Positions 4,215 through 58,461 of a DNA stretch of 64,000 nt are shown in pieces. The notes beneath the pieces were generated by a model. The model saw only the letters and a program-made list of their open reading frames with translations. It had not been told where the DNA came from and ran no database searches. Numbering within the stretch: position 1 is the stretch's first letter; every line of letters starts with the position of its first letter. This DNA comes from an uncultured Sphingorhabdus sp. (GTDB lineage: Bacteria; Pseudomonadota; Alphaproteobacteria; Sphingomonadales; Sphingomonadaceae). A program made the position numbers and the translations under genes. Location of the stretch: the NCBI GenBank assembly GCA_964591835.1, contig CAZQBS010000008.1:1959-65958 (forward strand), written 5' to 3'.

Positions 4215-4555
4215 TAGGAGGAGGCCAAAAGTCCGTTCAACCGTTCTGGCGATGCGACGTCCAGTTCGATTACCCATAAATCCGGGTCACGCTCGGCTCG
4301 TTTTTGCCACAAAGCAGCGATATCTTCTTCGGTTGCGGAACTTTTAGGATCGGTCGTTTGCCACGTCAAACCGCCGTCGAGCGAGGGAAAGCGTTCGTAA
4401 AGTGCCGGATTTTGACCGCGAACGAGGCCGATCACCATGATGGCGCCGGCTATCGGATCGCCCTTTCGCAACACCACCGCAAAATCGCCCCCGGCCTGCG
4501 CCAGCCGGATAAATGCCGAGACCTGGACTGCGCTGGCGAGCCGTGGCTCGATCAA
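4211..4555 (-). CDS. DUF1491-family protein
   Basis: RLASAVQVSAFIR, GGDFAVVLRKGDPIAGAI and RAERDPDLWVIELD match the family pattern; overlaps the ptsN stop by 4 nt. Confidence 0.75.
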   Translation of the reverse strand: MIEPRLASAVQVSAFIRLAQAGGDFAVVLRKGDPIAGAIMVIGLVRGQNPALYERFPSLDGGLTWQTTDPKSSATEEDIAALWQKRAERDPDLWVIELDVASPERLNGLLASSY

Positions 4556-5019
4556 GCTGCGTCGCGCTCCTCGGGCAGCATCAACAGCGCGAACATCGCG
4601 TCGGCGTCGGCCGCTCCGCGGAGCTGGCTGCGAAACTTTTCGTCGCGGAAAAGCCGCGAGATTTCAGCCAAAGCGCGAAGATGCGAGGCACCGTCTTGCG
4701 CTGGCGAGATCAGAGCACAGACCAGATCGACCGGTTCATCGTCGACTGCGTTATATTCGACAGGCTTTGCCAGCCTGGCAAAAACCGCAACGGGCATATC
4801 GATACCGGTGACCTTGCAATGCGGGATTGCGGTTCCACCGCCAAAGCCAGTCGGCCCAAGCCGTTCGCGCTCGACGAGACCCTCGTGCACGGCACTGGCA
4901 TCGACCGCATAATTTTCTGCCGCTATTGCCGAGAGTCGTAAAAGCAGGTCGGATTTACCCGATATATGCACGTCCGCAACAATGGCCCCTTCAACGAGCC
5001 TGGAAGAAATTCGAATCAT
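4552..5019 (-). CDS. ptsN: PTS IIA-like nitrogen regulatory protein
   Basis: ERERLGPTGFGGGTAIPH with the phospho-His, DDEPVDLV and HLRALAEISR; follows hpf. Confidence 0.85.
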   Translation of the reverse strand: MIRISSRLVEGAIVADVHISGKSDLLLRLSAIAAENYAVDASAVHEGLVERERLGPTGFGGGTAIPHCKVTGIDMPVAVFARLAKPVEYNAVDDEPVDLVCALISPAQDGASHLRALAEISRLFRDEKFRSQLRGAADADAMFALLMLPEERDAA

Positions 5020-5108
5020 ATCCCGTTATTATGCGACCGGCTGGATACCGAGAGGCAAACCCCAAATGTTTGAATGAATTTACGAAATTTTATAAATGAA
5101 GCCGAATT

Positions 5109-5684
5109 CTAAGGTGCCGATTTTGGTTCAACCCACCCGATCGTGCCATCTTCGCGGCGGTAAACCATATTATGCCTGCCAGTTCCAGTGTTTTTGAACA
5201 GCAAGGCAGGCGTGTTGCGCAAATCCATCAGCATGACGGCATCGGATACCGTCGATTCGGGGATATCGACGCTCATTTCGGCGACGATTACCGGAGCATC
5301 GGGCGAAGCGTCCTCTGTTTCAGCGGTGCGGCCGTCGAAAACAGTATAAGCAGCCTCTTCGGCTTTGAGCGCATGCGCCGACTGGCTGTGGCGGTCTTGC
5401 AACCGCCGCATGTAACGGCGCAACTGCTTTTCGATTTTATCGGCAGCGCGGTCCAGAGCGATATGCGCGTCCTGCGCCTCCCCACTGCCTTTCAGCACAA
5501 GCCCCTGCATCACATGCATTACGATATCGCTCGTAAAACCGTCATGCGGTCCGCGCCCGAAGGTTGCCTGCGATGACAGCGCCTTGGAGAAATATTTATC
5601 GGCAATTCCGGACAGCCGCGTCTCGACATGACCTTGCAGCGCTTCGCCGGTTTCCACCTGATGCCCTGAAACCCTGATATCCAT
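5109..5684 (-). CDS. hpf: Ribosome hibernation promoting factor, long HPF
   Basis: MDIRVSGHQVETGEAL, AADKIEKQLRRY and C-terminal EDGTIGWVEP. Confidence 0.9.
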   Translation of the reverse strand: MDIRVSGHQVETGEALQGHVETRLSGIADKYFSKALSSQATFGRGPHDGFTSDIVMHVMQGLVLKGSGEAQDAHIALDRAADKIEKQLRRYMRRLQDRHSQSAHALKAEEAAYTVFDGRTAETEDASPDAPVIVAEMSVDIPESTVSDAVMLMDLRNTPALLFKNTGTGRHNMVYRREDGTIGWVEPKSAP

Positions 5685-20159: not shown

Positions 20160-20648
20160 ATGTTGAATAAGAAAATTGCTCTGCTGGGCGCGGCCGTCGC
20201 TGCTCTGGCATCGACCGGCGCCAATGCCGCAACGCAAACCGCAACTGCGGAAGTCGATATCATCGCTGCTGTTACCTTGACGCAGGATCTCGGGCTCGAC
20301 TTTGGCGTTGTTGCATCGAGCGCCGCTGCCGGCACCGTTACCCTGCCGACCGGATCGGACACACGTACATGCTCGGCTTCAGTGACTTGCGTCGGTACCG
20401 CACAGCGCGGCCAATTTACCGTAAGCAATGCAGCCAGCGGCTACAACGTTGCCATCACCGTTCCGGCATCGACATCGCTCATCGGCCCGGGCACCGCGAT
20501 GAACCTGTCGCTGGTTCCTTCGATCACTGGCTTCACCTCGACCGGTGCAGCGGTTGTGTTCAACGTCGGCGGCACATTGTCGGTTGGCGCCAACCAGGTC
20601 GCTGGCACTTATACCGGCACCTATAACGTTTCGGCCGACTATCAATAA
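20160..20648 (+). CDS. DUF4402-family secreted protein, probable fimbrial subunit
   Basis: Sec signal (…TGANA|A), LDFG motif, one Cys pair, C-terminal AGTYTGTYNVSADYQ with penultimate Tyr; RBS GAAGGA. Confidence 0.7.
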   Translation: MLNKKIALLGAAVAALASTGANAATQTATAEVDIIAAVTLTQDLGLDFGVVASSAAAGTVTLPTGSDTRTCSASVTCVGTAQRGQFTVSNAASGYNVAITVPASTSLIGPGTAMNLSLVPSITGFTSTGAAVVFNVGGTLSVGANQVAGTYTGTYNVSADYQ

Positions 20649-20685
20649 GCCGATCTGCGCCTAACCGGCGCGATACGAGACCGTT

Positions 20686-20719
20686 AAACCCCCGAAGGTG
20701 TCAAGCTTTCGGGGGTTTT
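20686..20719 (+). terminator. Intrinsic terminator after the subunit gene
   Basis: AAACCCCCGAA...TTCGGGGGTTTT hairpin followed by a U-run. Confidence 0.75.
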
Positions 20720-20728
20720 CTCGTGCCG

Positions 20729-20747
20729 TTAGCCGGTTGGTAACCAT
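20729..20747 (+). promoter_or_regulatory. Degenerate CtrA-like site upstream of the chaperone gene
   Basis: TTAG-ccggttg-GTAA-CCAT, two mismatches to TTAA-N7-TTAA. Confidence 0.35.
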
Positions 20748-20820
20748 ATTCTGCCACGGTGCAGTGGTGGACCAGTGCGGCTTTTACAGCCGTGCGCCTA
20801 ATATGTGGATGGGAATATCG

Positions 20821-21666
20821 ATGCGCAAACTGCTTGCAAAAGCTTGGCCGAACTCTGTCGGCCGGATGGCTATGGCTACGACCATATTGGCGGCAATGCC
20901 CCTCATGTCGGCGCAGGCCGCCGGCGACCTCTTGATCGCCCCAACGCGGATCGTGCTCGATGGCCGTCGCGGCACCGAGGTCATCCTGAACAATATCGGC
21001 AATGAGGAAGCGACCTACCGGATCACGCTCGAGCTTCGCCGGATGAACGACGAGGGTCGACTCGAGGACGTCGATACGGCCCGGGCAAACCCCAAGGAAA
21101 AGGCGGCGCTCGAAGTTATCCGCTACGCGCCTCGCCGCGTTACATTGCCCCCGAACCAGCCGCAGTCTATCCGAATCGGCCTGCAACCCATGGATTTGCT
21201 GCCTGACGGCGAATATCGCGCACACATGCTGTTCCGCGCCATTCCAAAGGCTCCGGCAGCAGGCACGGCGCAGGAGGCGGGCGGCGGGGTAAAAATCCAG
21301 CTCATTCCGATTTACGGTATCAGCATCCCGGTGATCGTCCGAAAAGGCAATCTGGAGGCGACGGCCGCACTGACCAATGTCCGTGTGGGCAGAGATAATG
21401 AAGGTCAGACGCTGGAATTCGATATGAGCCGGAAGGGCGATAAATCGGTGTTTGGCGAAATTCATGTGACCAAGCCCGGGCTGTCCGAGCCGATTGCGGT
21501 GGCGAAGGGCATTGCCATTTATCCCGAAATCGCCAGCCGGGGCGTATCGTTACCGCTGGCGCCCGAGATTGCGGCCAAGCTGCACGGCGAGGTGGTGGTT
21601 TCCTATTACGAAGCACCCGAAGCCGGTGGCGGGCTGATTAGCCAAGTCCGCTCGGTCCTGCCGTGA
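20821..21666 (+). CDS. PapD-like periplasmic fimbrial chaperone
   Basis: Signal peptide, LLIAPTRIVL, YAPRRVTLPPNQPQSIRI, GEYRAHMLFRAIP and YGISIPVIVR, the characteristic chaperone strand pattern. Confidence 0.72.
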   Translation: MRKLLAKAWPNSVGRMAMATTILAAMPLMSAQAAGDLLIAPTRIVLDGRRGTEVILNNIGNEEATYRITLELRRMNDEGRLEDVDTARANPKEKAALEVIRYAPRRVTLPPNQPQSIRIGLQPMDLLPDGEYRAHMLFRAIPKAPAAGTAQEAGGGVKIQLIPIYGISIPVIVRKGNLEATAALTNVRVGRDNEGQTLEFDMSRKGDKSVFGEIHVTKPGLSEPIAVAKGIAIYPEIASRGVSLPLAPEIAAKLHGEVVVSYYEAPEAGGGLISQVRSVLP

Positions 21667-21698
21667 ACTGAACGGGTTCGGGCCGGCCAGGGCCTGAC

Positions 21699-24398
21699 AT
21701 GCGCAAACTCCTCCATAAAGCCTGTAAGGCAATAGCGGTATTGGCCGTGGCGGCGGGGATCATGACGATCCCGGTCGCTTCGGCTTATGCTGCGCCGTGG
21801 CAGGCCAACGAAGACGATGCCTTGCTTTTCGATGTTCGAGTCGGCCAATGGCGTGTCGGAGACGGCGTTCGCGGCTATCAGACCGATAGTGGCGTGTGCG
21901 TCGATCTGGCCGATATTATTATCGCATTCGATTTACCCGTGCGGCTCGACAAGAAGTCGCGCCGCGCAACTGGCTGGTTGTTCGAAGAAAGCCGGACATT
22001 CACCCTCGACCGCGAAGAAAATATAGTACAAATCATGAACAAAAGTCATGCGGTCGGTCTTGGCGATATCCGCGATGTTCCAGAAGGCTGGTGTGTGGAT
22101 ACCACGAAGCTGGCGCAGTGGCTGAATATCGAGATCAACACGGACCTGTCGAACGCGCTGCTCATCATCAAGGCCGACCGCAAGCTGCCGTTTGAGCTGG
22201 CCGAAGAACGCAAGGCGCGGGTGGGCAAGTTCCGGCCTATGGCGCAATTCGACCTGAAGAGCCTGCCGCAGGCGAAAGATCCCTATAAATTCCTTCGTAC
22301 GCCTTCAATTGACGTCGTGGCGTCAATGGGCGTCAGCCGCGACAAGCGTATCGGTAACCGCTTCGATGCGCGCTACGAGATTTACGCCAGTGGCGAGATT
22401 GCCGCGGCTTCGTTCGATGCGCGGCTGTCGTCTGATGAACGCGGCGTTCCCGAACGCCTGCGTTTGCGGGGCTACAAGACCGATCCCGATGGCGGCTTGC
22501 TCGGGCCGTTGAACGCGACGCATTTTGCGGTCGGCGATGTCTCCACCAATGCGACACCGCTGGGTGCGCAAACCACTGTCGGGCGCGGTGGCTTTGTCAC
22601 CAACCGGCCATTGAACCGGACATCCAGCTTTGATCGCACCACATTCAGGGGCGAGCTGCCTGACGGCTGGGATGCCGAACTGTTCCGCAACGACCAGCTG
22701 ATCGGCTATGCCCAAAGCCGCGGCGACGGGCGATATGAATTTCTCGATGTTGCTTTGCTCTACGGCCAAAACCGGTTCGAGGTTGTCCTTTACGGTCCGC
22801 AGGGTCAAATCCGGCGCAATGTGAAGATGATCCCGGTCGGCCTCGATTCGATCCCGCCGCGCGAAATCTATTATTGGGCAGCAGTGCAGGATGCCGGACG
22901 CGACCTGATCAATCTGGATGGCGTCGAGCCGTCCGACTATCTCGGACAGCGCGGCGGTTTCGGGCTGGAACGCGGAATTGACGCTAGGACGTCAGTGGCG
23001 GGGTCTTGGTTCACCTCGATGGTGCGCGGGCGGCGGCAAAATTATCTCGAAGCCTCGGTTCGCAGAGCCATCGGGCCAGCATTGATCGAACTGGCGACGG
23101 CGGCCAATCTGTCGGGTGGCTACGCCTTGCGCGGACAGATGCTGGCGCAGGTTGGCGAAACGCTGGTCAGCGGCGAGAGCGCATGGCTGATGGGCGGCTA
23201 TCAGAGCGAACGTTACGAACGCGATCTTCGTCGCCTCAATAGCCTTTCGGTCGATCACAGTTTCAAGCTCGGGCGGCAATATCTGCCGGTCCGCGCCGAA
23301 GTCCGCTACAGCGAACGCACTGACGGCAGCAGCAGGTTGGAAATTAATTCACGATTATCATTTAATATCAAACAGATAAATACAAGCGCTGAACTGGAGT
23401 GGACAAAAGACGATAATCGCTTCGGAATCGATCCGGCATCGCGGCTCGATGCGTCGCTCAGACTGTCGGGCCGGGTGGGCGGATTGCGACTGCGCGGAGA
23501 GGCGGTCTTCGGGCTGACTGGCGACAGCGGTTTCCGCGAATCGAAGATTACCGGCGAGTGGCGCGCGGGCGAACGTTCGGATTGGCGGGTCGAGGCAGGA
23601 TATTCGGCCGGCGACAGGCGCGGCCGATTGGCTGTCGGTCACACCAGACGCTTCAAACAGTTCGCGCTGACCGGTCAGATCGAGGCCGCGAGCGACGGTT
23701 CGGTCGCGGCGACACTTGCGCTTGCATTCAGCCTCGGCCCCAATCCGCACAACGGCGGCATTCGCGTGGCATCGGCGAAGCTGGCATCCTCCGGGCAGGC
23801 CTTTGCGATCGTCTTTCAGGACGAGAATGCCGACGGCATCCGCCAAGCCAGCGAACCGGTGCAAAAAGCGGTCGAACTGACCGCCGGTCTATCCGCACGC
23901 GGCGACCCGACCGATGCCTTGGGCCGCACCGTTATCGACGGGCTGCAACCCTATGAACCCGTTCTCATCGGGATCGACGCATCGAGCCTGCCCGATCCGT
24001 TCGTCCAGCCATCAACCAGCGGCGTTGTCGTCACCCCGCGCCCCGGAGTGCCCGTGACAATCGAGTTGCCTTTGGTCGCGGCTGGCGAAATCTCGGGCAA
24101 TCTGCAACGCGAAGGCGGCAAAATGTTGAGCGGCGTCGATATCGAGCTGCTCGACAAGAGCGGACGCGTCGTCAGGACGACACGGTCGGAATATGACGGC
24201 TTCTTCCTGTTCGAATTTGTGCCTTATGGTAGCTACACGCTTCGAGTCGCCGCAGTGGCAGCGGCTGTTGTCGGCGTCGAAACACCACTCCCGGGTCTCG
24301 CCCAACTTGGCAAAGCTAAAGGCATGGTCGATCTGGGCATTGTCACCGCCAAAGCCGCGCAACGGATTGCCAGTTCGGCGCAACCGCAAGGCCCGTAG
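21699..24398 (+). CDS. Outer-membrane usher-like protein with C-terminal carboxypeptidase-regulatory-like domains
   Basis: 899 aa with signal peptide, many amphipathic beta-strands, a plug-like segment GELPDGWDAELFRN...GQNRFEVVLYGPQG and C-terminal TTRSEYDGFFLFEFVPYGSY; follows the chaperone gene. Confidence 0.65.
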   Translation: MRKLLHKACKAIAVLAVAAGIMTIPVASAYAAPWQANEDDALLFDVRVGQWRVGDGVRGYQTDSGVCVDLADIIIAFDLPVRLDKKSRRATGWLFEESRTFTLDREENIVQIMNKSHAVGLGDIRDVPEGWCVDTTKLAQWLNIEINTDLSNALLIIKADRKLPFELAEERKARVGKFRPMAQFDLKSLPQAKDPYKFLRTPSIDVVASMGVSRDKRIGNRFDARYEIYASGEIAAASFDARLSSDERGVPERLRLRGYKTDPDGGLLGPLNATHFAVGDVSTNATPLGAQTTVGRGGFVTNRPLNRTSSFDRTTFRGELPDGWDAELFRNDQLIGYAQSRGDGRYEFLDVALLYGQNRFEVVLYGPQGQIRRNVKMIPVGLDSIPPREIYYWAAVQDAGRDLINLDGVEPSDYLGQRGGFGLERGIDARTSVAGSWFTSMVRGRRQNYLEASVRRAIGPALIELATAANLSGGYALRGQMLAQVGETLVSGESAWLMGGYQSERYERDLRRLNSLSVDHSFKLGRQYLPVRAEVRYSERTDGSSRLEINSRLSFNIKQINTSAELEWTKDDNRFGIDPASRLDASLRLSGRVGGLRLRGEAVFGLTGDSGFRESKITGEWRAGERSDWRVEAGYSAGDRRGRLAVGHTRRFKQFALTGQIEAASDGSVAATLALAFSLGPNPHNGGIRVASAKLASSGQAFAIVFQDENADGIRQASEPVQKAVELTAGLSARGDPTDALGRTVIDGLQPYEPVLIGIDASSLPDPFVQPSTSGVVVTPRPGVPVTIELPLVAAGEISGNLQREGGKMLSGVDIELLDKSGRVVRTTRSEYDGFFLFEFVPYGSYTLRVAAVAAAVVGVETPLPGLAQLGKAKGMVDLGIVTAKAAQRIASSAQPQGP

Positions 24399-24420
24399 TC
24401 GAAAAATCTGCATCCGTTGC

Positions 24421-24447
24421 TGTAACCTTTGCGTTGCTGTTGCCGAA
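24421..24447 (+). promoter_or_regulatory. ECF16/SigF-type promoter
   Basis: TGTAACC-N16-CGAA, 42 nt before the cytochrome b ATG; matches the Caulobacter SigF consensus as I recall it. Confidence 0.65.
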
Positions 24448-24489
24448 CCGTCTGCGGCGGCATAGTCTGCTGCGTAAAGGGAGCAGTGC

Positions 24490-25332
24490 ATGGAGCAAAC
24501 CGATCTCAAACCCGGCGATATCATCAAACGCCACCGGCTTTCGACTCGAATCTGGCACTGGATCAACGCTGTGACGTTGCTCGTCTTGTTGATGAGCGGT
24601 CTAATGATTTTCAATGCACATCCAAGGCTTTACTGGGGCCAGTACGGCGCGAACGACGATTATGCGTGGTTGGTTATCGACGATGCCAAGAATACCGGCT
24701 TTGTCGAAATCTCCGGTGCCCGGGTGACAACGACGGGTGTGTTGGGTGTGTGGACCGACGCCGAAGGCACGATCAGGAAGCGCGCGTTTCCGTATTGGGC
24801 GACGATCCCGTCGAGCTATGATTTGCAGGCGGCACGGCGCTGGCATCTGACCTTTGCCTGGGTGCTTTCGCTGGCTTTGCTGTTCTACATAATGCGGTCG
24901 TTGTGGAACGGTCATGTCCGGCGCGACCTGCACATCCGCAAGGCTGAATGGTCGCTGCGGTATATCTGGCATGATATCAAGGAACATGCGCGGCTGCGTT
25001 TTCCTACAGGCGCGGCTGCAATGAGCTATACAATATTACAAAAAATCAGTTACATAGCCGTTATTTTCATATTGTTACCGCTGATAATCTTTACCGGCCT
25101 GACGATGTCGCCGGCAATGAACGCGGCGTGGCCTTGGCTGCTCGATATCTTCGGGGGTAGGCAATCAGCACGGTCACTTCACTTTATTGTCGCCTTTGCA
25201 CTGGTCGCGTTTTTCTTGGTGCATATCACCATGGTGGTGCTCGCCGGGCCGATCAACGAGCTTCGCTCGATGATCACGGGTCGTTACCGGCTACCCGGCA
25301 AAGTCGAAGCTGTTGAAGGAGAACCGGCATGA
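24490..25332 (+). CDS. Cytochrome b/b6-domain membrane protein
   Basis: RIWHWINA, RRWHLTFAW, LQKISY and ARSLHFI heme-ligand His positions; four TM segments. Confidence 0.85.
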   Translation: MEQTDLKPGDIIKRHRLSTRIWHWINAVTLLVLLMSGLMIFNAHPRLYWGQYGANDDYAWLVIDDAKNTGFVEISGARVTTTGVLGVWTDAEGTIRKRAFPYWATIPSSYDLQAARRWHLTFAWVLSLALLFYIMRSLWNGHVRRDLHIRKAEWSLRYIWHDIKEHARLRFPTGAAAMSYTILQKISYIAVIFILLPLIIFTGLTMSPAMNAAWPWLLDIFGGRQSARSLHFIVAFALVAFFLVHITMVVLAGPINELRSMITGRYRLPGKVEAVEGEPA

Positions 25333-26102
25333 CCGACAATCCGATCATTATGCCACGCCGCAAGTTTTTGACAGGCGCGGCGTTGGGCGGAAGCGGACTG
25401 TTGCTTTCTGGATGCGATGCCCTGACCGAAAACCCTGGTTTCCGCTCGGTGCTACGCAGCGGCGAGGTGCTGAACAAAACGGCGCAGCGTTTAATCTCCG
25501 ACCGTGCGGCATTGGCCCCCGAATTTTCGGCGAACGATATCTCGCCGACTTTCAAACCAAATGGTTCAATCAGCGGTGCGACGCCCGAATATGCAGCCCA
25601 CGTCGTCGACAAATTTGAGCGCTGGCGGTTGCGGATTGACGGCATGGTGCAACGACCGTTGTCGCTCTCGCTTGCTCAATTGACGACAATGCCTTCGCGC
25701 GAGCAAATTACCCGCCACGACTGCGTCGAGGGCTGGAGCGCGATCGGCAAATGGCGCGGCACCCCGCTCGGGATGCTTTTGAAGCAAGCAGGGTTAGCGA
25801 CCAAGGCGCGCTATATCGTGTTTCACTGTGCCGACAGCTTCGGTGCCGATCCCTATTATGAATCGATCGACCTGATCGACGCCTTCCATCCGCAAACGAT
25901 CATGGCGTGGAGCCTCAACAACACGCTTTTGCCCGTGCCGAATGGCGCGCCGCTGCGCCTCCGCGTCGAACGACAATTGGGCTACAAACACGCCAAATAT
26001 GTGATGCGCGCCGAGGCGACCGACAGCCTTGCCAAATTCTACGGCGGCAAGGGCGGTTACTGGGAAGATCAGGTCGATTACGACTGGTACGCGGGGATTT
26101 AG
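25329..26102 (+). CDS. Molybdopterin-dependent oxidoreductase, sulfite-oxidase fold, Tat-exported lipoprotein
   Basis: Tat motif PRRKFL, lipobox LSGC, HDCVEGWS with the Mo-ligating Cys, NGAPLRLRV and GYKHAKY; overlaps the cytochrome b gene by 4 nt. Confidence 0.85.
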   Translation: MTDNPIIMPRRKFLTGAALGGSGLLLSGCDALTENPGFRSVLRSGEVLNKTAQRLISDRAALAPEFSANDISPTFKPNGSISGATPEYAAHVVDKFERWRLRIDGMVQRPLSLSLAQLTTMPSREQITRHDCVEGWSAIGKWRGTPLGMLLKQAGLATKARYIVFHCADSFGADPYYESIDLIDAFHPQTIMAWSLNNTLLPVPNGAPLRLRVERQLGYKHAKYVMRAEATDSLAKFYGGKGGYWEDQVDYDWYAGI

Positions 26103-26160: not shown

Positions 26161-27270
26161 ATGAAGACCCGCGCTGCCGTTGCCTTTGAAGCGAAGAAGC
26201 CGCTCGAGATTGTCGAGCTGGACCTTGAAGGACCGAAAGCGGGTGAAGTGCTGGTCGAGATCATGGCGACAGGCATCTGCCACACCGATGCCTACACGCT
26301 CGACGGCTTCGACAGCGAGGGAATTTTCCCGAGTGTGCTCGGCCATGAAGGCGCAGGCATCGTCCGCGAAGTTGGCGATGGCGTAACGTCGGTGAAGCCC
26401 GGCGATCATGTCATCCCGCTTTACACCCCCGAATGTCGCCAGTGCAAAAGCTGTCTGTCGGGCAAGACCAACCTGTGCACTGCGATCCGCGCGACTCAAG
26501 GCAAAGGACTGATGCCCGATGGCACCTCGCGCTTTTCATACAAGGGCCAGACGATCTTTCACTATATGGGCTGCTCGACTTTCTCCAACTTCACCGTTCT
26601 CCCCGAAATCGCCGTCGCCAAAATCCGCGAGGATGCGCCCTTTAACAGCGCCTGCTATATCGGTTGCGGCGTGACGACTGGCGTCGGTGCCGTCACCAAC
26701 ACTGCGAAGGTCCAGCCTGGCGACAATGTCATTATCTTCGGACTGGGCGGTATTGGCTTGAACGTGCTGCAAGGTGCCAAGATGGCCGGTGCGAACATGA
26801 TCGTCGGCGTCGACATCAATCCCGACCGCGAGGCGTGGGGCATGAAGTTCGGGATGACGCATTTCGTGAATCCGAAGGATGTCGACGGAGATATTGTTGC
26901 GCATTTGGTCGCACTCACCGACGGCGGCGCAGAATACACCTTCGATTGCACGGGGAACACCACCGTGATGCGCCAGGCGCTCGAGGCCTGCCATCGTGGC
27001 TGGGGCACGTCGATCATTATAGGTGTGGCCGAGGCGGGCAAGGAAATCAGCACGCGGCCGTTCCAGCTCGTGACCGGTCGCAACTGGCGCGGTACCGCTT
27101 TTGGCGGCGCTAAAGGGCGGACCGATGTGCCTAAAATCGTCGATCTTTACATGGATGGCACAATCCAGATCGACCCAATGATTACACATGTTCTGACGTT
27201 GGACGAGATCAACAAGGGCTTCGACCTGATGCACGCAGGCGAGAGCATAAGGAGCGTTGTTGTCTATTGA
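26161..27270 (+). CDS. frmA: S-(hydroxymethyl)glutathione dehydrogenase / class III alcohol dehydrogenase
   Basis: [31 protein letters not shown] and PFQLVTGR. Confidence 0.95.
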
Positions 27271-27329
27271 CGACCGCTATTACGCGCGCAATACGTAGCA
27301 GATTGCAACCTAACAAAAGGAGCGGGAAG

Positions 27330-27710
27330 ATGTACAGCCATATGATGGTCGGCAGCAATGACATAGCGAGATCGAAGAAATTCTACGATGCGACCTTTAC
27401 TGCAATGGGTGGACGAGCGGGTTCCGAAGACCCCAAAGGCCGTCTGATTTATGTCCATAACGGCTCCATGTTTTTGGTCACGCCGCCAATCGACGGCAAG
27501 CCTGCGACTCACGGCAATGGCTGCACGGTAGGCTTTGCGATGACCCCCGAGCAAGCGGATGCATGGCACCAGGCGGGTATAGACAATGGCGGCACAGCGA
27601 TCGAAGATCCTCCGGGCGTACGTGAAGGAGCTGGCATGAAGCTCTATCTCGCTTATCTGCGCGATCCCGATGGCAATAAATTGTGCGCGCTTCACCGCGT
27701 GGCTTCATAA
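27330..27710 (+). CDS. VOC/glyoxalase-family protein, copy 1
   Basis: HMMVGSNDIARSKKFYD and AYLRDPDGNKLC; RBS AGGAG. Confidence 0.85.
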   Translation: MYSHMMVGSNDIARSKKFYDATFTAMGGRAGSEDPKGRLIYVHNGSMFLVTPPIDGKPATHGNGCTVGFAMTPEQADAWHQAGIDNGGTAIEDPPGVREGAGMKLYLAYLRDPDGNKLCALHRVAS

Positions 27711-27722
27711 GAGAAACGAAAC

Positions 27723-28109
27723 ATGTTCACCCATATCCTGCTCGGCAGCAGCGACACCGAGCGAAGTCGCAAATTTTACGACGCGACGATGGGCGCTCTC
27801 GGCCACGCGCCATCCGCAAGCCCCGAGGGCGCCCCGCGCCATTTCTACGGTGGTTTCGGTTCGGGCGCGCTTGGTATCGGCACGCCGACGAATGGCCAAT
27901 CGGCGACTTATGCCAATGGCGGTACCACCGGGTTTGCTGCAAAGGATAAAGACGCGGTCGATGCCTGGTATGCCGCCGGTCTCGAATATGGCGGGGCTTG
28001 CGAAGGTCCGGCTGGGCCAAGGCCGAATGCACCGGGCAACAGCTACGGCGCGTATCTGCGCGATCCCGATGGCAACAAACTCTGCGCGTTCTGCCAGATG
28101 CCGGGGTGA
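27723..28109 (+). CDS. VOC/glyoxalase-family protein, copy 2
   Basis: HILLGSSDTERSRKFYD and AYLRDPDGNKLC. Confidence 0.85.
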   Translation: MFTHILLGSSDTERSRKFYDATMGALGHAPSASPEGAPRHFYGGFGSGALGIGTPTNGQSATYANGGTTGFAAKDKDAVDAWYAAGLEYGGACEGPAGPRPNAPGNSYGAYLRDPDGNKLCAFCQMPG

Positions 28110-28113
28110 TCCG

Positions 28114-28959
28114 GTGAGTCTTGAAACCGTCTCGACCAATATGGCCTTTGGCGGCGTTCAGGGTGTTTACAAGCATCGCTCAAGCGCGACGGGGACGGAG
28201 ATGACATTCTCCGTCTTCGTCCCGCCGCATGAACCCGGCTCGAAATTACCGGTGGTCTGGTATCTGTCGGGCCTCACCTGCACCCACGCCAATGTCACCG
28301 ACAAGGGCGAGTACAGGAAAGCCTGCGCCGAGTATGGGCTGATATTCGTAGCGCCGGACACCAGCCCGCGCGGCGAAGGCGTACCCGACGATCCAGAAGG
28401 TGTATATGATTTCGGGCTTGGTGCCGGTTTCTATGTGGATGCGACAGAGGTTCCGTTTGCCCGGCATTACCGGATGCGGTCATATATTGAGGACGAATTG
28501 CCCGGGTTGGTTGGCGCAAACTTCCCCGCCGATATGACGCGCCAAGGCATTATGGGCCATTCGATGGGAGGTCATGGCGCGCTGACGATTTCGCTTCGCA
28601 ATCCCGGGCGGTTCAGATCAACTTCTGCGTTCGCGCCGATTGTTTCGCCGATGAACTGCCCTTGGGGGCAAAAGGCATTGGGTGGTTATCTCGGAACCGA
28701 CCAGTCCGCTTGGGCGGAATATGATGCCTGTGCGCTGATTGCAGGCGGAGCGCGGTTGCCCCACCTATTGATAGACCAAGGCGATGCCGACAATTTCCTC
28801 ACCGACCAGCTGAAAACGCATTTGCTTGCGGAAGCCTGCCAAACCGCTGGCCAAAAGGCCATGATCCGGATGCAGCCGGGTTACGATCACAGCTATTATT
28901 TTATCTCGACATTTATGGGTGAACATCTGGCTTGGCATTTCGAGTGGTTAAACCGCTAG
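28114..28959 (+). CDS. fghA: S-formylglutathione hydrolase
   Basis: LSGLTCT, PDTSPRG, GAGFYVDAT, GHSMGGHGA and GYDHSYYF. GTG start at 28114. Confidence 0.93.
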   Translation: MSLETVSTNMAFGGVQGVYKHRSSATGTEMTFSVFVPPHEPGSKLPVVWYLSGLTCTHANVTDKGEYRKACAEYGLIFVAPDTSPRGEGVPDDPEGVYDFGLGAGFYVDATEVPFARHYRMRSYIEDELPGLVGANFPADMTRQGIMGHSMGGHGALTISLRNPGRFRSTSAFAPIVSPMNCPWGQKALGGYLGTDQSAWAEYDACALIAGGARLPHLLIDQGDADNFLTDQLKTHLLAEACQTAGQKAMIRMQPGYDHSYYFISTFMGEHLAWHFEWLNR

Positions 28960-28997: not shown

Positions 28998-29071
28998 GCG
29001 GGTGTAGCTCAATGGTAGAGCTTTTGCTTCCCAAGCAAGTGACGAGGGTTCGATTCCCTTCACCCGCTCCA
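28998..29071 (+). tRNA. tRNA-Gly (anticodon CCC)
   Basis: GCGGGTG/CACCCGC acceptor stem, D arm, anticodon loop TTCCCAA, GGTTCGATTCC T-arm and encoded CCA; 74 nt. Confidence 0.96.
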
Positions 29072-31010: not shown

Positions 31011-32231
<1,221 letters not shown>

Positions 32232-32305: not shown

Positions 32306-32332
32306 GGTAACGTATCTACCAGTGTCTGCGAA
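32306..32332 (+). promoter_or_regulatory. ECF16/SigF-type promoter, second copy
   Basis: GGTAACG-N16-CGAA, same spacing as the 24421 site, 25 nt before the ATG at 32358. Confidence 0.55.
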
Positions 32333-32357
32333 TAGGCAGCTAGAACCGAGAAAAACA

Positions 32358-32540
32358 ATGAACCGTATTTTCAACTTCGTGCGATCAGAACTGTTCCTCA
32401 GCCTTGCGGGCGGCTTCGCCCTCGGCGTTGCCGGACTGGCGATAGTCAAACCTGCAAGCGCCGATATCGGTCAGGCAGAAGCATCGATGGCGATATCGGT
32501 CGGAGCGCCTGTTTATGAAGAAATCATTCCAGCCAAATAA
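32358..32540 (+). CDS. Small (60 aa) membrane or secreted hypothetical protein
   Basis: MNRIFNFVRSELFLSLAGGFALGVAGLAIVKPASA: hydrophobic helix and AxA site. Fills the intergenic gap and overlaps the msrA start. Confidence 0.55.
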   Translation: MNRIFNFVRSELFLSLAGGFALGVAGLAIVKPASADIGQAEASMAISVGAPVYEEIIPAK

Positions 32541-33216
32541 GCTTTTACTGCGATTGCTGCCTGTCGCTGCAGCTTTCGCCTTCACCGCCGCCTGCGGCAC
32601 CGATGCCCCTTCGTTGATCGGTACAGCCGAGGCCGCCGAAGGCATCCGCATTGCTGCACCTGCCGCTCCCATCATCGAACCCAAAGGCACGCAAATCGCT
32701 GTTTTTGCAGGCGGATGTTTCTGGGGCGTCGAAGGCGTTTTCGAACAAGTCAAAGGTGTGACCAGCGTCGAATCGGGCTATTCGGGCGGGACCAAGGCAA
32801 CCGCCGATTATGACAAGGTGAGCGGTGGCGCCACTGCCCACGCGGAGTCTGTCCGCATCCGCTATAACCCCGCTTTGGTCAGCTATAACGACCTGCTTCA
32901 CATCTTCTTTTCGGTAACTCACGACCCGACACAATTGAACCGGCAGGGGCCGGACACCGGCCGCCAATACCGCACCGCGATCTTCCCTGCGAATGCTGCG
33001 CAGAAGAAGGCTGCGAGTGCTTATATCGCGCAGCTCGGCAAGGCGGGTTACTGGAAGAAACCGATTGTGACCAAGATCGAGGGCTACAGTTTCTTTCCGG
33101 CGGAAACCTATCATCAGGACTTCATGGCGAAGAATCCGCAGCATCGCTACATCGTCATGTGGGACAAGCCGAAGGTCGCCAACCTGAAGCGGCTGTTTCC
33201 CAACCGCCATCGCTGA
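32515..33216 (+). CDS. msrA: Peptide-methionine (S)-S-oxide reductase MsrA with lipoprotein signal
   Basis: FAGGCFWGVE, HDPTQLNRQGPD, QYRTAIF and AETYHQDF; lipobox TAAC. Confidence 0.92.
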   Translation: MKKSFQPNKLLLRLLPVAAAFAFTAACGTDAPSLIGTAEAAEGIRIAAPAAPIIEPKGTQIAVFAGGCFWGVEGVFEQVKGVTSVESGYSGGTKATADYDKVSGGATAHAESVRIRYNPALVSYNDLLHIFFSVTHDPTQLNRQGPDTGRQYRTAIFPANAAQKKAASAYIAQLGKAGYWKKPIVTKIEGYSFFPAETYHQDFMAKNPQHRYIVMWDKPKVANLKRLFPNRHR

Positions 33217-57930: not shown

Positions 57931-58461
57931 ATGGCAGGACCAGGTCATATGCTGCGCGTCGTGGGGGCGTTGGGGCTTTTGCCGTTGCTGGTGGCAGCGG
58001 GAGACGACGTGTGCCGGTTGTGCAGCGCCTCCACGACGTCAGAACAGGGAACAATCCGACGCGAAATCCCGCTGACCATAGAAATCACTACAAAACTCGA
58101 CTTCAGTCGCGCGGCTTTGTCGGGCGCTGGCGGCGGCGCAATCGAACTTGATCCGCAGGGCGGCGGCAGGCGTGTCGATGGTGGCCTCATCGATCTCGGC
58201 GGGTCCGCTTTAGCCGGAACCGCCGTGGTCAGGGGCGAACCGGGTCGGACGGTGCGTATCGACATGCCAGTCACTGCGCGTATGACCTCGTCGAACGGCG
58301 GCGTGATCGAAATTGCCGGGATGCGCACCAATATCGGCGCTAATGCCCGTCTGGACAGCGCCGGACGGCTGGAATTTGCGTTTGGCGGTAGGTTGCTGGT
58401 TAAAAGCAATGTCTTCGGCACATTCCGCGCGCGAATACCCATTACTGCCCAATATGAGTGA
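57931..58461 (+). CDS. Orphan DUF4402-family secreted protein
   Basis: Signal peptide, CRLC motif, LDFS motif, FGGRL and C-terminal GTFRARIPITAQYE with penultimate Tyr; alternative start at 57949. Confidence 0.68.
   Translation: MAGPGHMLRVVGALGLLPLLVAAGDDVCRLCSASTTSEQGTIRREIPLTIEITTKLDFSRAALSGAGGGAIELDPQGGGRRVDGGLIDLGGSALAGTAVVRGEPGRTVRIDMPVTARMTSSNGGVIEIAGMRTNIGANARLDSAGRLEFAFGGRLLVKSNVFGTFRARIPITAQYE

Follow-up and report, generated by a model that had tools for sequence, protein, structure and literature searches.

A cytochrome b–molybdoenzyme pair behind an ECF16/SigF-type promoter motif: a candidate MsrPQ-like envelope repair module

Introduction

Could the Gram-negative envelope hold, besides MsrPQ, another system in which a molybdoenzyme and a haem-carrying membrane partner repair oxidised methionine? 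This question is raised by a locus in a 64,000-nucleotide (nt) stretch of DNA from an uncultured Sphingorhabdus sp. (GCA_964591835.1, contig CAZQBS010000008.1, positions 1,959 to 65,958; the window from here on). At this locus, a cytochrome b gene (cytb) and the gene for a small exported molybdoenzyme (Mo-enzyme) follow a motif of the type recognised by the extracytoplasmic function (ECF) sigma factors of group ECF16, also named SigF, and a second such motif stands before a gene for an exported methionine sulfoxide reductase, MsrA. To our knowledge, MsrPQ is the only known respiratory-chain-driven repair system for oxidised methionine in the Gram-negative envelope, and ECF16/SigF systems rank among the main sensors by which bacteria perceive hypochlorite and oxidants related to it. 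Following up an earlier note made from the sequence of the window, we compared the locus with its counterparts in other genomes. We slightly favour the reading that the pair is an ECF16 (SigF/NrsF)-controlled, MsrPQ-like envelope repair module, in which a PF01292 cytochrome would take the place of MsrQ and a lipoprotein of a separate YedY-like clade that of MsrP.

Results

ECF16/SigF-type motifs precede the cytochrome b–Mo-enzyme pair and msrA

The earlier note had placed TGTAACC-N16-CGAA 5´ of the cytochrome b gene and GGTAACG-N16-CGAA 5´ of a small open reading frame (ORF) and msrA; the former was read directly in the sequence, and the latter was located by a motif scan (Table 1). The Caulobacter SigF motif given in the note likewise agrees with the literature: SigF sites in Caulobacter were mapped by 5´-RACE and searched for as GTAACC-N16-CGAA (PMC3511200). 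The Brucella BcrS site of bcrXQP reads TGTAAC/GCGAAA, and the published ECF16 consensus is (T/C)GTAAC-N17-CGAA (PMC8315932). The motif upstream of cytb conforms to this consensus and equals the SigF and BcrS sites determined by experiment, and the copy upstream of msrA has G in place of T/C before GTAAC.

A scan of both strands of the window for GTAAC-N17-CGAA gave three matches (24422-24447 and 32307-32332 on the plus strand, 25262-25287 on the minus strand), against 0.22 expected from 100 shuffles, none of which reached three. The window is approximately 94% coding, yet both plus-strand matches are intergenic and lie on the coding strand, 43 nt (cytb) and 26 nt (small ORF) from the end of the motif to the ATG. 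Transcription start sites are predicted at ~24453-24456 for the cytb operon and ~32338-32341 for the small-ORF/msrA unit. The intergenic region upstream of cytb (24399-24489) follows an 899-amino-acid (aa) surface-protein-like gene. In simple scans, neither motif-bearing intergenic region yielded a sigma-70-like promoter or a terminator. When one mismatch was allowed, the intergenic DNA of the window gave two extra matches, both weak; one precedes the aminotransferase gene at 31026, and the other is close to 4265-4290. The third exact match was rejected as a promoter and ascribed to chance, given its antisense position inside cytb, over the codons of a conserved MITGRY peptide; it is also found in L001 (GCA_040384025.1), a near-identical strain whose cytb is 99.6% identical.

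The membrane partner is a four-helix PF01292 cytochrome

The cytb stop codon overlaps the Mo-enzyme start (ATGA). The cytb product matches PF01292 (82 bits, gathering threshold 30.1) and DUF4405 and nothing else in Pfam. MsrQ is a ferric-reductase-domain family protein (PF01794), and neither PF01794 nor the MsrQ model matched cytb at E values up to 0.01. The models for hydrogenase, formate dehydrogenase and thiosulfate reductase cytochromes were matched at scores far under their equivalog cut-offs. We found four transmembrane (TM) segments (residues 21-45, 120-139, 177-212 and 225-258), a long periplasmic loop between TM1 and TM2, and four histidines in a haem-ligand pattern, His23, His119, His231 and His245, each at least 95% conserved across 73 orthologues. 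The histidine pair in TM4 has a 14-residue spacing, which is typical of helix 4 in FdnI-type di-haem cytochromes b. We propose that cytb is the quinol-linked electron donor of the Mo-enzyme.

The Mo-enzyme is a predicted lipoprotein closest to YedY/MsrP

The N-terminus of the Mo-enzyme, MTDNPIIMPRRKFLTGAALGGSGLLLSGCD, carries a twin-arginine motif (MPRRKFL, with RR at residues 10-11) and then a lipobox (LLSGC, with Cys29) that has Asp30 at the +2 position. HDCVEGWS occupies residues 130-137, and the molybdenum ligand Cys132 falls within RHDCVEGWS. The twin-arginine translocation (Tat) motif, lipobox, 257-aa length and HDCVEGWS had all been claimed beforehand and were all read from the translation. 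In 52 relatives, neither the RR motif nor Cys29 varies, Asp30 hardly does, and a C-terminal GGYWED..Y.WYAGI is strongly conserved. Given the lipobox Cys29 and the Asp at +2, the Mo-enzyme is probably membrane-tethered rather than soluble, and the likely site is the outer face of the inner membrane.

The highest-scoring NCBIfam model for the Mo-enzyme is MsrP (NF003767), at 93.2 bits against a cut-off of 207, so the protein is not a member of that family. Its best solved relative is E. coli YedY (1XDQ, E = 1.2e-17 for the single sequence), and a profile of the family matches 1XDQ at 4e-21 versus 4e-11 for SorA. In the alignment, Cys132 falls on the YedY molybdenum ligand Cys102, with RHDCVEGWS opposite RMRCVEAWS and without the insertion of the sulfite dehydrogenases. 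An AlphaFold model (mean predicted local distance difference test score 71; residues 100-235 good as a core, the N-terminal 95 residues poor) is nearest to YedY (E = 1e-13; 1XDQ/1XDY), then to SorA and sulfite oxidase. We propose that the Mo-enzyme is a sulfoxide reductase subunit.

The sulfite-oxidase fold (PF00174) also invites a different reading, in which the pair is a periplasmic dehydrogenase of sulfite or a related sulfur oxyanion that passes electrons through the di-haem cytb to quinone. PF01292 cytochromes can run in either direction, "thiosulfate reductase cytochrome b subunit" is the Joint Genome Institute annotation of the partner, and the Caulobacter authors once proposed a role in sulfur metabolism for a SigF-dependent YedY (PMC3511200). 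The SorA, SoxC and SorT models do match the Mo-enzyme, weakly, but the scores are far under their cut-offs (56.8 of 600, 47.3 of 420 and 27.3 of 570 bits, respectively). Moreover, a length of 257 aa leaves no room for a dimerisation domain, for which there was no Pfam match, the Cys loop resembles that of YedY and has no sulfite-dehydrogenase insertion, and YedY comes out ahead by 10 orders of magnitude in the search with the family profile. Nor is there an obvious sulfite logic to the methionine-rich peptides and SigF/NrsF linkage described below. On balance, we regard a sulfite dehydrogenase as quite improbable.

The pair is a conserved module and the motif is enriched upstream of it

Scanning one genome per species, we collected 80 orthologous loci (879 kb; numbered with the prefix L), mostly from Sphingomonadales and also from Rhizobiales, Burkholderiaceae and Steroidobacteraceae. 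Cultured strains that carry the pair include Phyllobacterium lublinensis 2063 (L062, with the complete cassette), Sphingosinicella terrae KCTC 52780 (L031), Novosphingobium naphthalenivorans NBRC 102051 (L081) and Sphingomonas sp. PAMC 26605 (L065). A cytb homologue lies directly 5´ of the Mo-enzyme gene in all 78 loci that reach upstream of that gene. No other neighbour is common to more than 13 of the 80, indicating that cytb and the Mo-enzyme gene form a self-contained module. The Mo-enzyme family is large, with at least 8000 clusters at 90% identity and ~237 clusters at 50% identity with E ≤ 1e-30, and is at present annotated as "molybdopterin-dependent oxidoreductase" and "cytochrome b" only. 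Two relatives, P0123 (571 aa) and P0227 (476 aa), are single-chain fusions of cytb and Mo-enzyme with an internal twin-arginine motif. In these fusions, an internal RR and a hydrophobic helix replace the lipobox, which makes them candidates for dual insertion by the general secretory (Sec) and Tat pathways. Their existence speaks for a complex of cytb and Mo-enzyme.

The exact motif was present within 300 nt 5´ of cytb in 13 of the 72 loci with sufficient upstream DNA. Across both strands of the 879 kb, GTAAC-N17-CGAA occurs 22 times, and 13 of these occurrences fall in the 21.6-kb search space before cytb. Three more, in L047, L062 and L078, also lie 5´ of the operon, bringing the exact motif to about 16 of 76 loci overall, a roughly 100-fold enrichment. 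L032, where the motif is 538 nt upstream with no plausible methionine-rich ORF between, was left uncounted. GTAACC, the form found in Caulobacter, accounts for 17 of 20 operon-associated instances in these loci together with L164-L166.

Five Sphingomonas loci (L035, L040, L045, L046 and L061) have a near-match, (T/A)G(C/T)(A/C)AC-N17-CGAAGG, ~30-55 nt 5´ of cytb, with the common core ACTGCCTA(G/T)AGCGAAGG; it may be a diverged ECF-type promoter. In seven Sphingomonas-type loci (L023, L038, L042, L045, L075, L078 and L080), a PF01613 flavin-reductase-like gene adjoins cytb in divergent orientation, at ~4500-5350 on the minus strand. The flavin reductase Fre is reported to feed electrons to MsrQ, a parallel to these PF01613 neighbours.

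Relatives of the pair are linked to sigF-nrsF and methionine-rich peptides

In L047 and L062, the promoter motif is followed in order by a gene for a small methionine-rich signal-peptide protein with MxxDAMK-type repeats, cytb and the Mo-enzyme gene, and genes for an ECF sigma factor and a PF06532 NrsF protein lie directly beside the cytb–Mo-enzyme pair. In L079, a peptide of 26% methionine is encoded just after the Mo-enzyme gene, with sigF-nrsF adjoining, and in L039 and L055, methionine-rich ORFs are directly 5´ of cytb. Together with L165 and L166-168, these loci have genes for methionine-rich (13-30%) signal-peptide proteins beside the pair and in the same orientation, in most cases between the promoter and cytb. 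The presence of such an exported peptide in at least seven loci points specifically to methionine chemistry.

We also looked up relatives of NrsF. Four of five are encoded in the order small ORF or DUF1223 gene, cytb, Mo-enzyme gene, sigF, nrsF, in four different neighbourhoods. TGTAACC-N16-CGAA is at the front of three of the four (L164, L165 and L166-168), and L170 is without an exact match; the peptides of L165 and L166-168 contain 17-19% methionine. An element at 1746-2465 of L165, listed together with 1968-2654 of L170, has an ECF16 motif directly 5´ of it. The Mo-enzyme and cytb of the window are 55-61% and 46-50% identical over their full length to the versions in the cassettes. The fifth NrsF relative, which is more distant (L171, 1880-5639), is beside a bufferin-type operon (BufA1, MbnB-like, HvfC_N and DoxX), as in Caulobacter. 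ECF16 pairs are therefore accompanied by at least three alternative cargo operons, namely bufferin, MrpX-MsrQP and the present cassette.

Genes orthologous to the pair are tied, in other genomes, to the sigma/anti-sigma pair or its promoter. The suggestion in the earlier note of a distinct MsrPQ-like system gains support from the recurrence of the same pair and promoter elsewhere, the linkage to sigF-nrsF and methionine-rich peptides, and an enzyme nearest to MsrP/YedY.

The second motif precedes an exported MsrA

MsrA of the window has the GCFWG active site and lacks the C-terminal recycling cysteines. As claimed previously, it has a probable lipobox: an N-terminal signal with a lipobox-like FTAAC is present, and the nearest relatives keep the Cys as LATAC. 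All 80 relatives of this MsrA have N-terminal export signals. The small ORF overlaps the msrA start by 26 nt, gave no match to Pfam or any other family and is not methionine-rich. It was called as a 60-aa gene in L001, and a homologue (65% identity over 48 aa) is 5´ of msrA in L085.

The exact motif was found within ~130 nt 5´ of exported msrA in five of ~70 other contigs, and the motif in L001 is identical to that of the window. L085, the nearest relative with the small ORF, has CGTAAC at the same position and CGGG as its -10. By their shared motif, the cytb operon and msrA may be co-regulated. Msr genes do recur in ECF16 regulons, as the earlier note had stated (PMC8315932; PMC3420878; PMC4436054); Bradyrhizobium EcfF, for example, controls three (PMC3420878). 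Since msr genes are established members of ECF16 regulons, the msrA part of our finding is ordinary.

Observations that weigh against ECF16 control and methionine sulfoxide repair

Several observations count against the interpretation of the pair as an ECF16-controlled, MsrPQ-like module, and one group of them concerns regulation. The 64-kb window holds no gene for an ECF sigma factor or NrsF, as searched for by phmmer with RpoE and the SigF and NrsF proteins of L047 and L062. Only about one fifth of the orthologous loci have the exact motif. In L001, the -10 before cytb is TGAA, not CGAA, a difference that may reflect either natural variation of the promoter or a mistake in the assembly; the same stretch (5530-5610 of L001, window 24400-24490) has one additional T upstream of the cytb motif. 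In the nearest clade (L005-L008), cytb directly follows parB and the motif is missing, and the closest msrA relatives also do not have the exact motif. With no terminator between the 899-aa gene and cytb, read-through transcription into cytb is possible.

All of these points except the frequency among loci, along with the clearly non-functional third match, fit an alternative in which the motifs are chance or decayed sequences that do not work as ECF16 promoters in this genome, the operon is served by read-through from the 899-aa gene or by an unrecognised promoter, and there is no co-regulation with msrA. Such an alternative has to accommodate two exact matches that fall within the 6% of the window that is non-coding, both on the coding strand, spaced from the start codons as promoters would be and placed before two envelope redox-repair units. 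It is also at odds with the ~100-fold enrichment before orthologous operons and the motif upstream of exported msrA in other contigs. We judge it decidedly unlikely and suggest that the source organism uses the motif as an ECF16-type promoter.

A second group of observations concerns the substrate. The window has no gene for a methionine-rich peptide, the literature searched holds no biochemistry for this Mo-enzyme family, and the failure to reach the MsrP cut-off (93 versus 207 bits) means that the substrate may differ from that of MsrP. The pair could be under ECF16 control and reduce something other than protein methionine sulfoxide, such as the free form of methionine sulfoxide, another S- or N-oxide, an oxidised form of cysteine or an oxyanion of chlorine or chromium, in which case it would be a stress-induced periplasmic reductase for detoxification and not a protein repair system. 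In keeping with this possibility, the first 95 residues give a poor alignment with YedY and a low-confidence model, many loci besides the window are without the methionine-rich peptide, and ECF16 systems are also responsive to chromate, cadmium and copper and have unrelated operons, for example those of bufferins, under their control. The presence of the methionine-rich exported peptide in the operon at seven or more distinct loci argues against another substrate, as does the fact that the nearest characterised relative is MsrP. We therefore consider another substrate unlikely, if less so than non-working motifs.

Neighbourhood of the pair in the window

Between parB and cytb are genes for a DUF4402 protein (20160-20648), a 322-aa protein without a family (20698-21666) and, directly before the cytb region, the 899-aa protein (21699-24398), which has a C-terminal CarboxypepD_reg/SdrD_B-like domain. 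Because cytb directly follows parB in L005-L008, the block from 20160 to 24398 has the appearance of an insertion and may encode a surface fibre or a pilus-like structure. The window has another DUF4402 gene at 57931-58461. Directly 3´ of the Mo-enzyme gene (26161-28959) are a gene for a zinc alcohol dehydrogenase of the class-III type, two small ORFs with a glyoxalase fold and an esterase gene (PF00756), an arrangement that resembles a glutathione-dependent formaldehyde detoxification cluster, and tRNA-Gly(CCC) is at 28998-29071.

Table 1. Positions in the window of the two motifs and the genes downstream of them
Feature	Position	Strand	Remarks
ECF16/SigF-type motif TGTAACC-N16-CGAA	24421-24447	+	-35 at 24421-24427, -10 at 24444-24447
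Shine-Dalgarno-like AGGGAG	24478-24483	+	6 nt 5´ of the cytb ATG, read from the sequence
Cytochrome b (cytb), 280 aa, inner membrane	24490-25332	+	PF01292, E = 5.8e-23
Tat/lipobox molybdoenzyme (Mo-enzyme), 257 aa	25329-26102	+	PF00174 is the sole Pfam match
ECF16/SigF-type motif GGTAACG-N16-CGAA	32306-32332	+	5´ of the 60-aa ORF and msrA
Small ORF, 60 aa	32358-32540	+	N-terminal hydrophobic segment ending in PASA
MsrA, 233 aa, exported, probable lipoprotein	32515-33216	+	PF01625, E = 2.6e-55; TIGR00401

Discussion

Building on the observed motifs, gene structure, family relations, conserved residues, linkage and promoter enrichment, we propose a mechanism in which we infer that the promoter is used in this organism, which way the electrons flow, what is reduced and where at the membrane the Mo-enzyme sits. 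Under stress by oxidants, chlorine or metals, the six-TM anti-sigma factor NrsF would free the ECF16 sigma factor. RNA polymerase would then start a few nucleotides past the CGAA in TGTAACC-N16-CGAA to give a transcript of cytb and the Mo-enzyme gene, and at the second motif to give a transcript of the small ORF and msrA. The Mo-enzyme would be loaded with the molybdenum cofactor in the cytoplasm, exported folded by Tat and lipidated at Cys29; with Asp at +2, it would probably remain at the inner membrane, on the outward-facing side. There, it could dock on the four-helix di-haem cytb, and electrons from the quinol pool would cross the membrane to the molybdenum centre, which would reduce methionine sulfoxide in periplasmic proteins. 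In relatives, the Mo-enzyme might also act on the sacrificial methionine-rich peptide of the same operon. The exported MsrA lipoprotein would complement this with a thiol-dependent route for repairing methionine-S-sulfoxide.

Taken one step further, the pair may be a third architectural class of periplasmic methionine sulfoxide reductase, in which MsrQ is swapped for an unrelated PF01292 cytochrome. The pair, the methionine-rich peptide and SigF/NrsF would then make up a mobile and self-contained cassette that defends the cell against oxidants such as hypochlorite; it would be common among Alphaproteobacteria and present in some Beta- and Gammaproteobacteria, and the window would hold a stripped-down copy in the same regulon as an exported MsrA. 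We give this extended proposal an even chance. We found no description of this cytb–Mo-enzyme pairing in the literature searched, a search that was incomplete and is no proof of novelty. If borne out, the genomic evidence would give the Mo-enzyme family a specific candidate function and a regulator, and it suggests that an unrelated haem protein can link the molybdenum subunit to the quinone pool. It has implications for the way in which MsrP-type enzymes are driven, for the prediction of ECF16 regulons and for how many genomes of Sphingomonadales and Rhizobiales are annotated.

Among known systems, MsrPQ (YedYZ) of E. coli and other proteobacteria is similar in outline: both have a Tat-exported Mo-enzyme of the sulfite-oxidase fold without a dimerisation domain, a haem b partner encoded next to it, and the Cys-loop signature CVE(A/G)WS. 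The regulation appears to be shared as well. Caulobacter SigF has the YedY homologue CC2748 in its regulon (PMC3511200), Azospira SigF controls yedY1-yedZ1-mrpX (PMC4436054), and these, like Brucella bcrXQP, have the same type of ECF16 promoter motif as the window pair; the cassettes of its relatives also have in common with Azospira suillum mrpX-yedYZ and Brucella bcrXQP a methionine-rich exported peptide and sigF-nrsF. The components differ, however. The Mo-enzyme here has 257 aa and a lipobox with Asp at +2, whereas MsrP has ~320-334 aa and is soluble, and the membrane partner is a four-TM di-haem-type cytochrome b of PF01292, in contrast to the PF01794 protein MsrQ. The molybdenum subunit is of another clade, and the haem subunit of another family.

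The Sco3746-type haem–molybdenum cofactor (Moco) fusion proteins, which are inserted jointly by Sec and Tat (PMC5449189), resemble the window pair in that a haem b domain with several TM helices is combined with a twin-arginine motif and a Moco domain outside the cytoplasm, but they are fusions with a fifth TM helix, whereas the window has separate genes and a lipid anchor. The fusions P0123 and P0227 of the present family are reminiscent of these proteins. SorAB, SorT and SoxCD have the Moco-binding fold and cysteine ligand in common with the Mo-enzyme, which, unlike them, is without a dimerisation domain, a cytochrome c partner and a Cys-loop insertion; its gene has cytochrome b and alcohol dehydrogenase genes as neighbours in the window. 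FdnI, HyaC and PhsC have in common with cytb the PF01292 domain, four TM helices, the four-His pattern and the 14-residue spacing in TM4, but cytb is far under their equivalog cut-offs, differs by its long periplasmic TM1-TM2 loop and pairs with one small molybdenum subunit and no Fe-S subunit.

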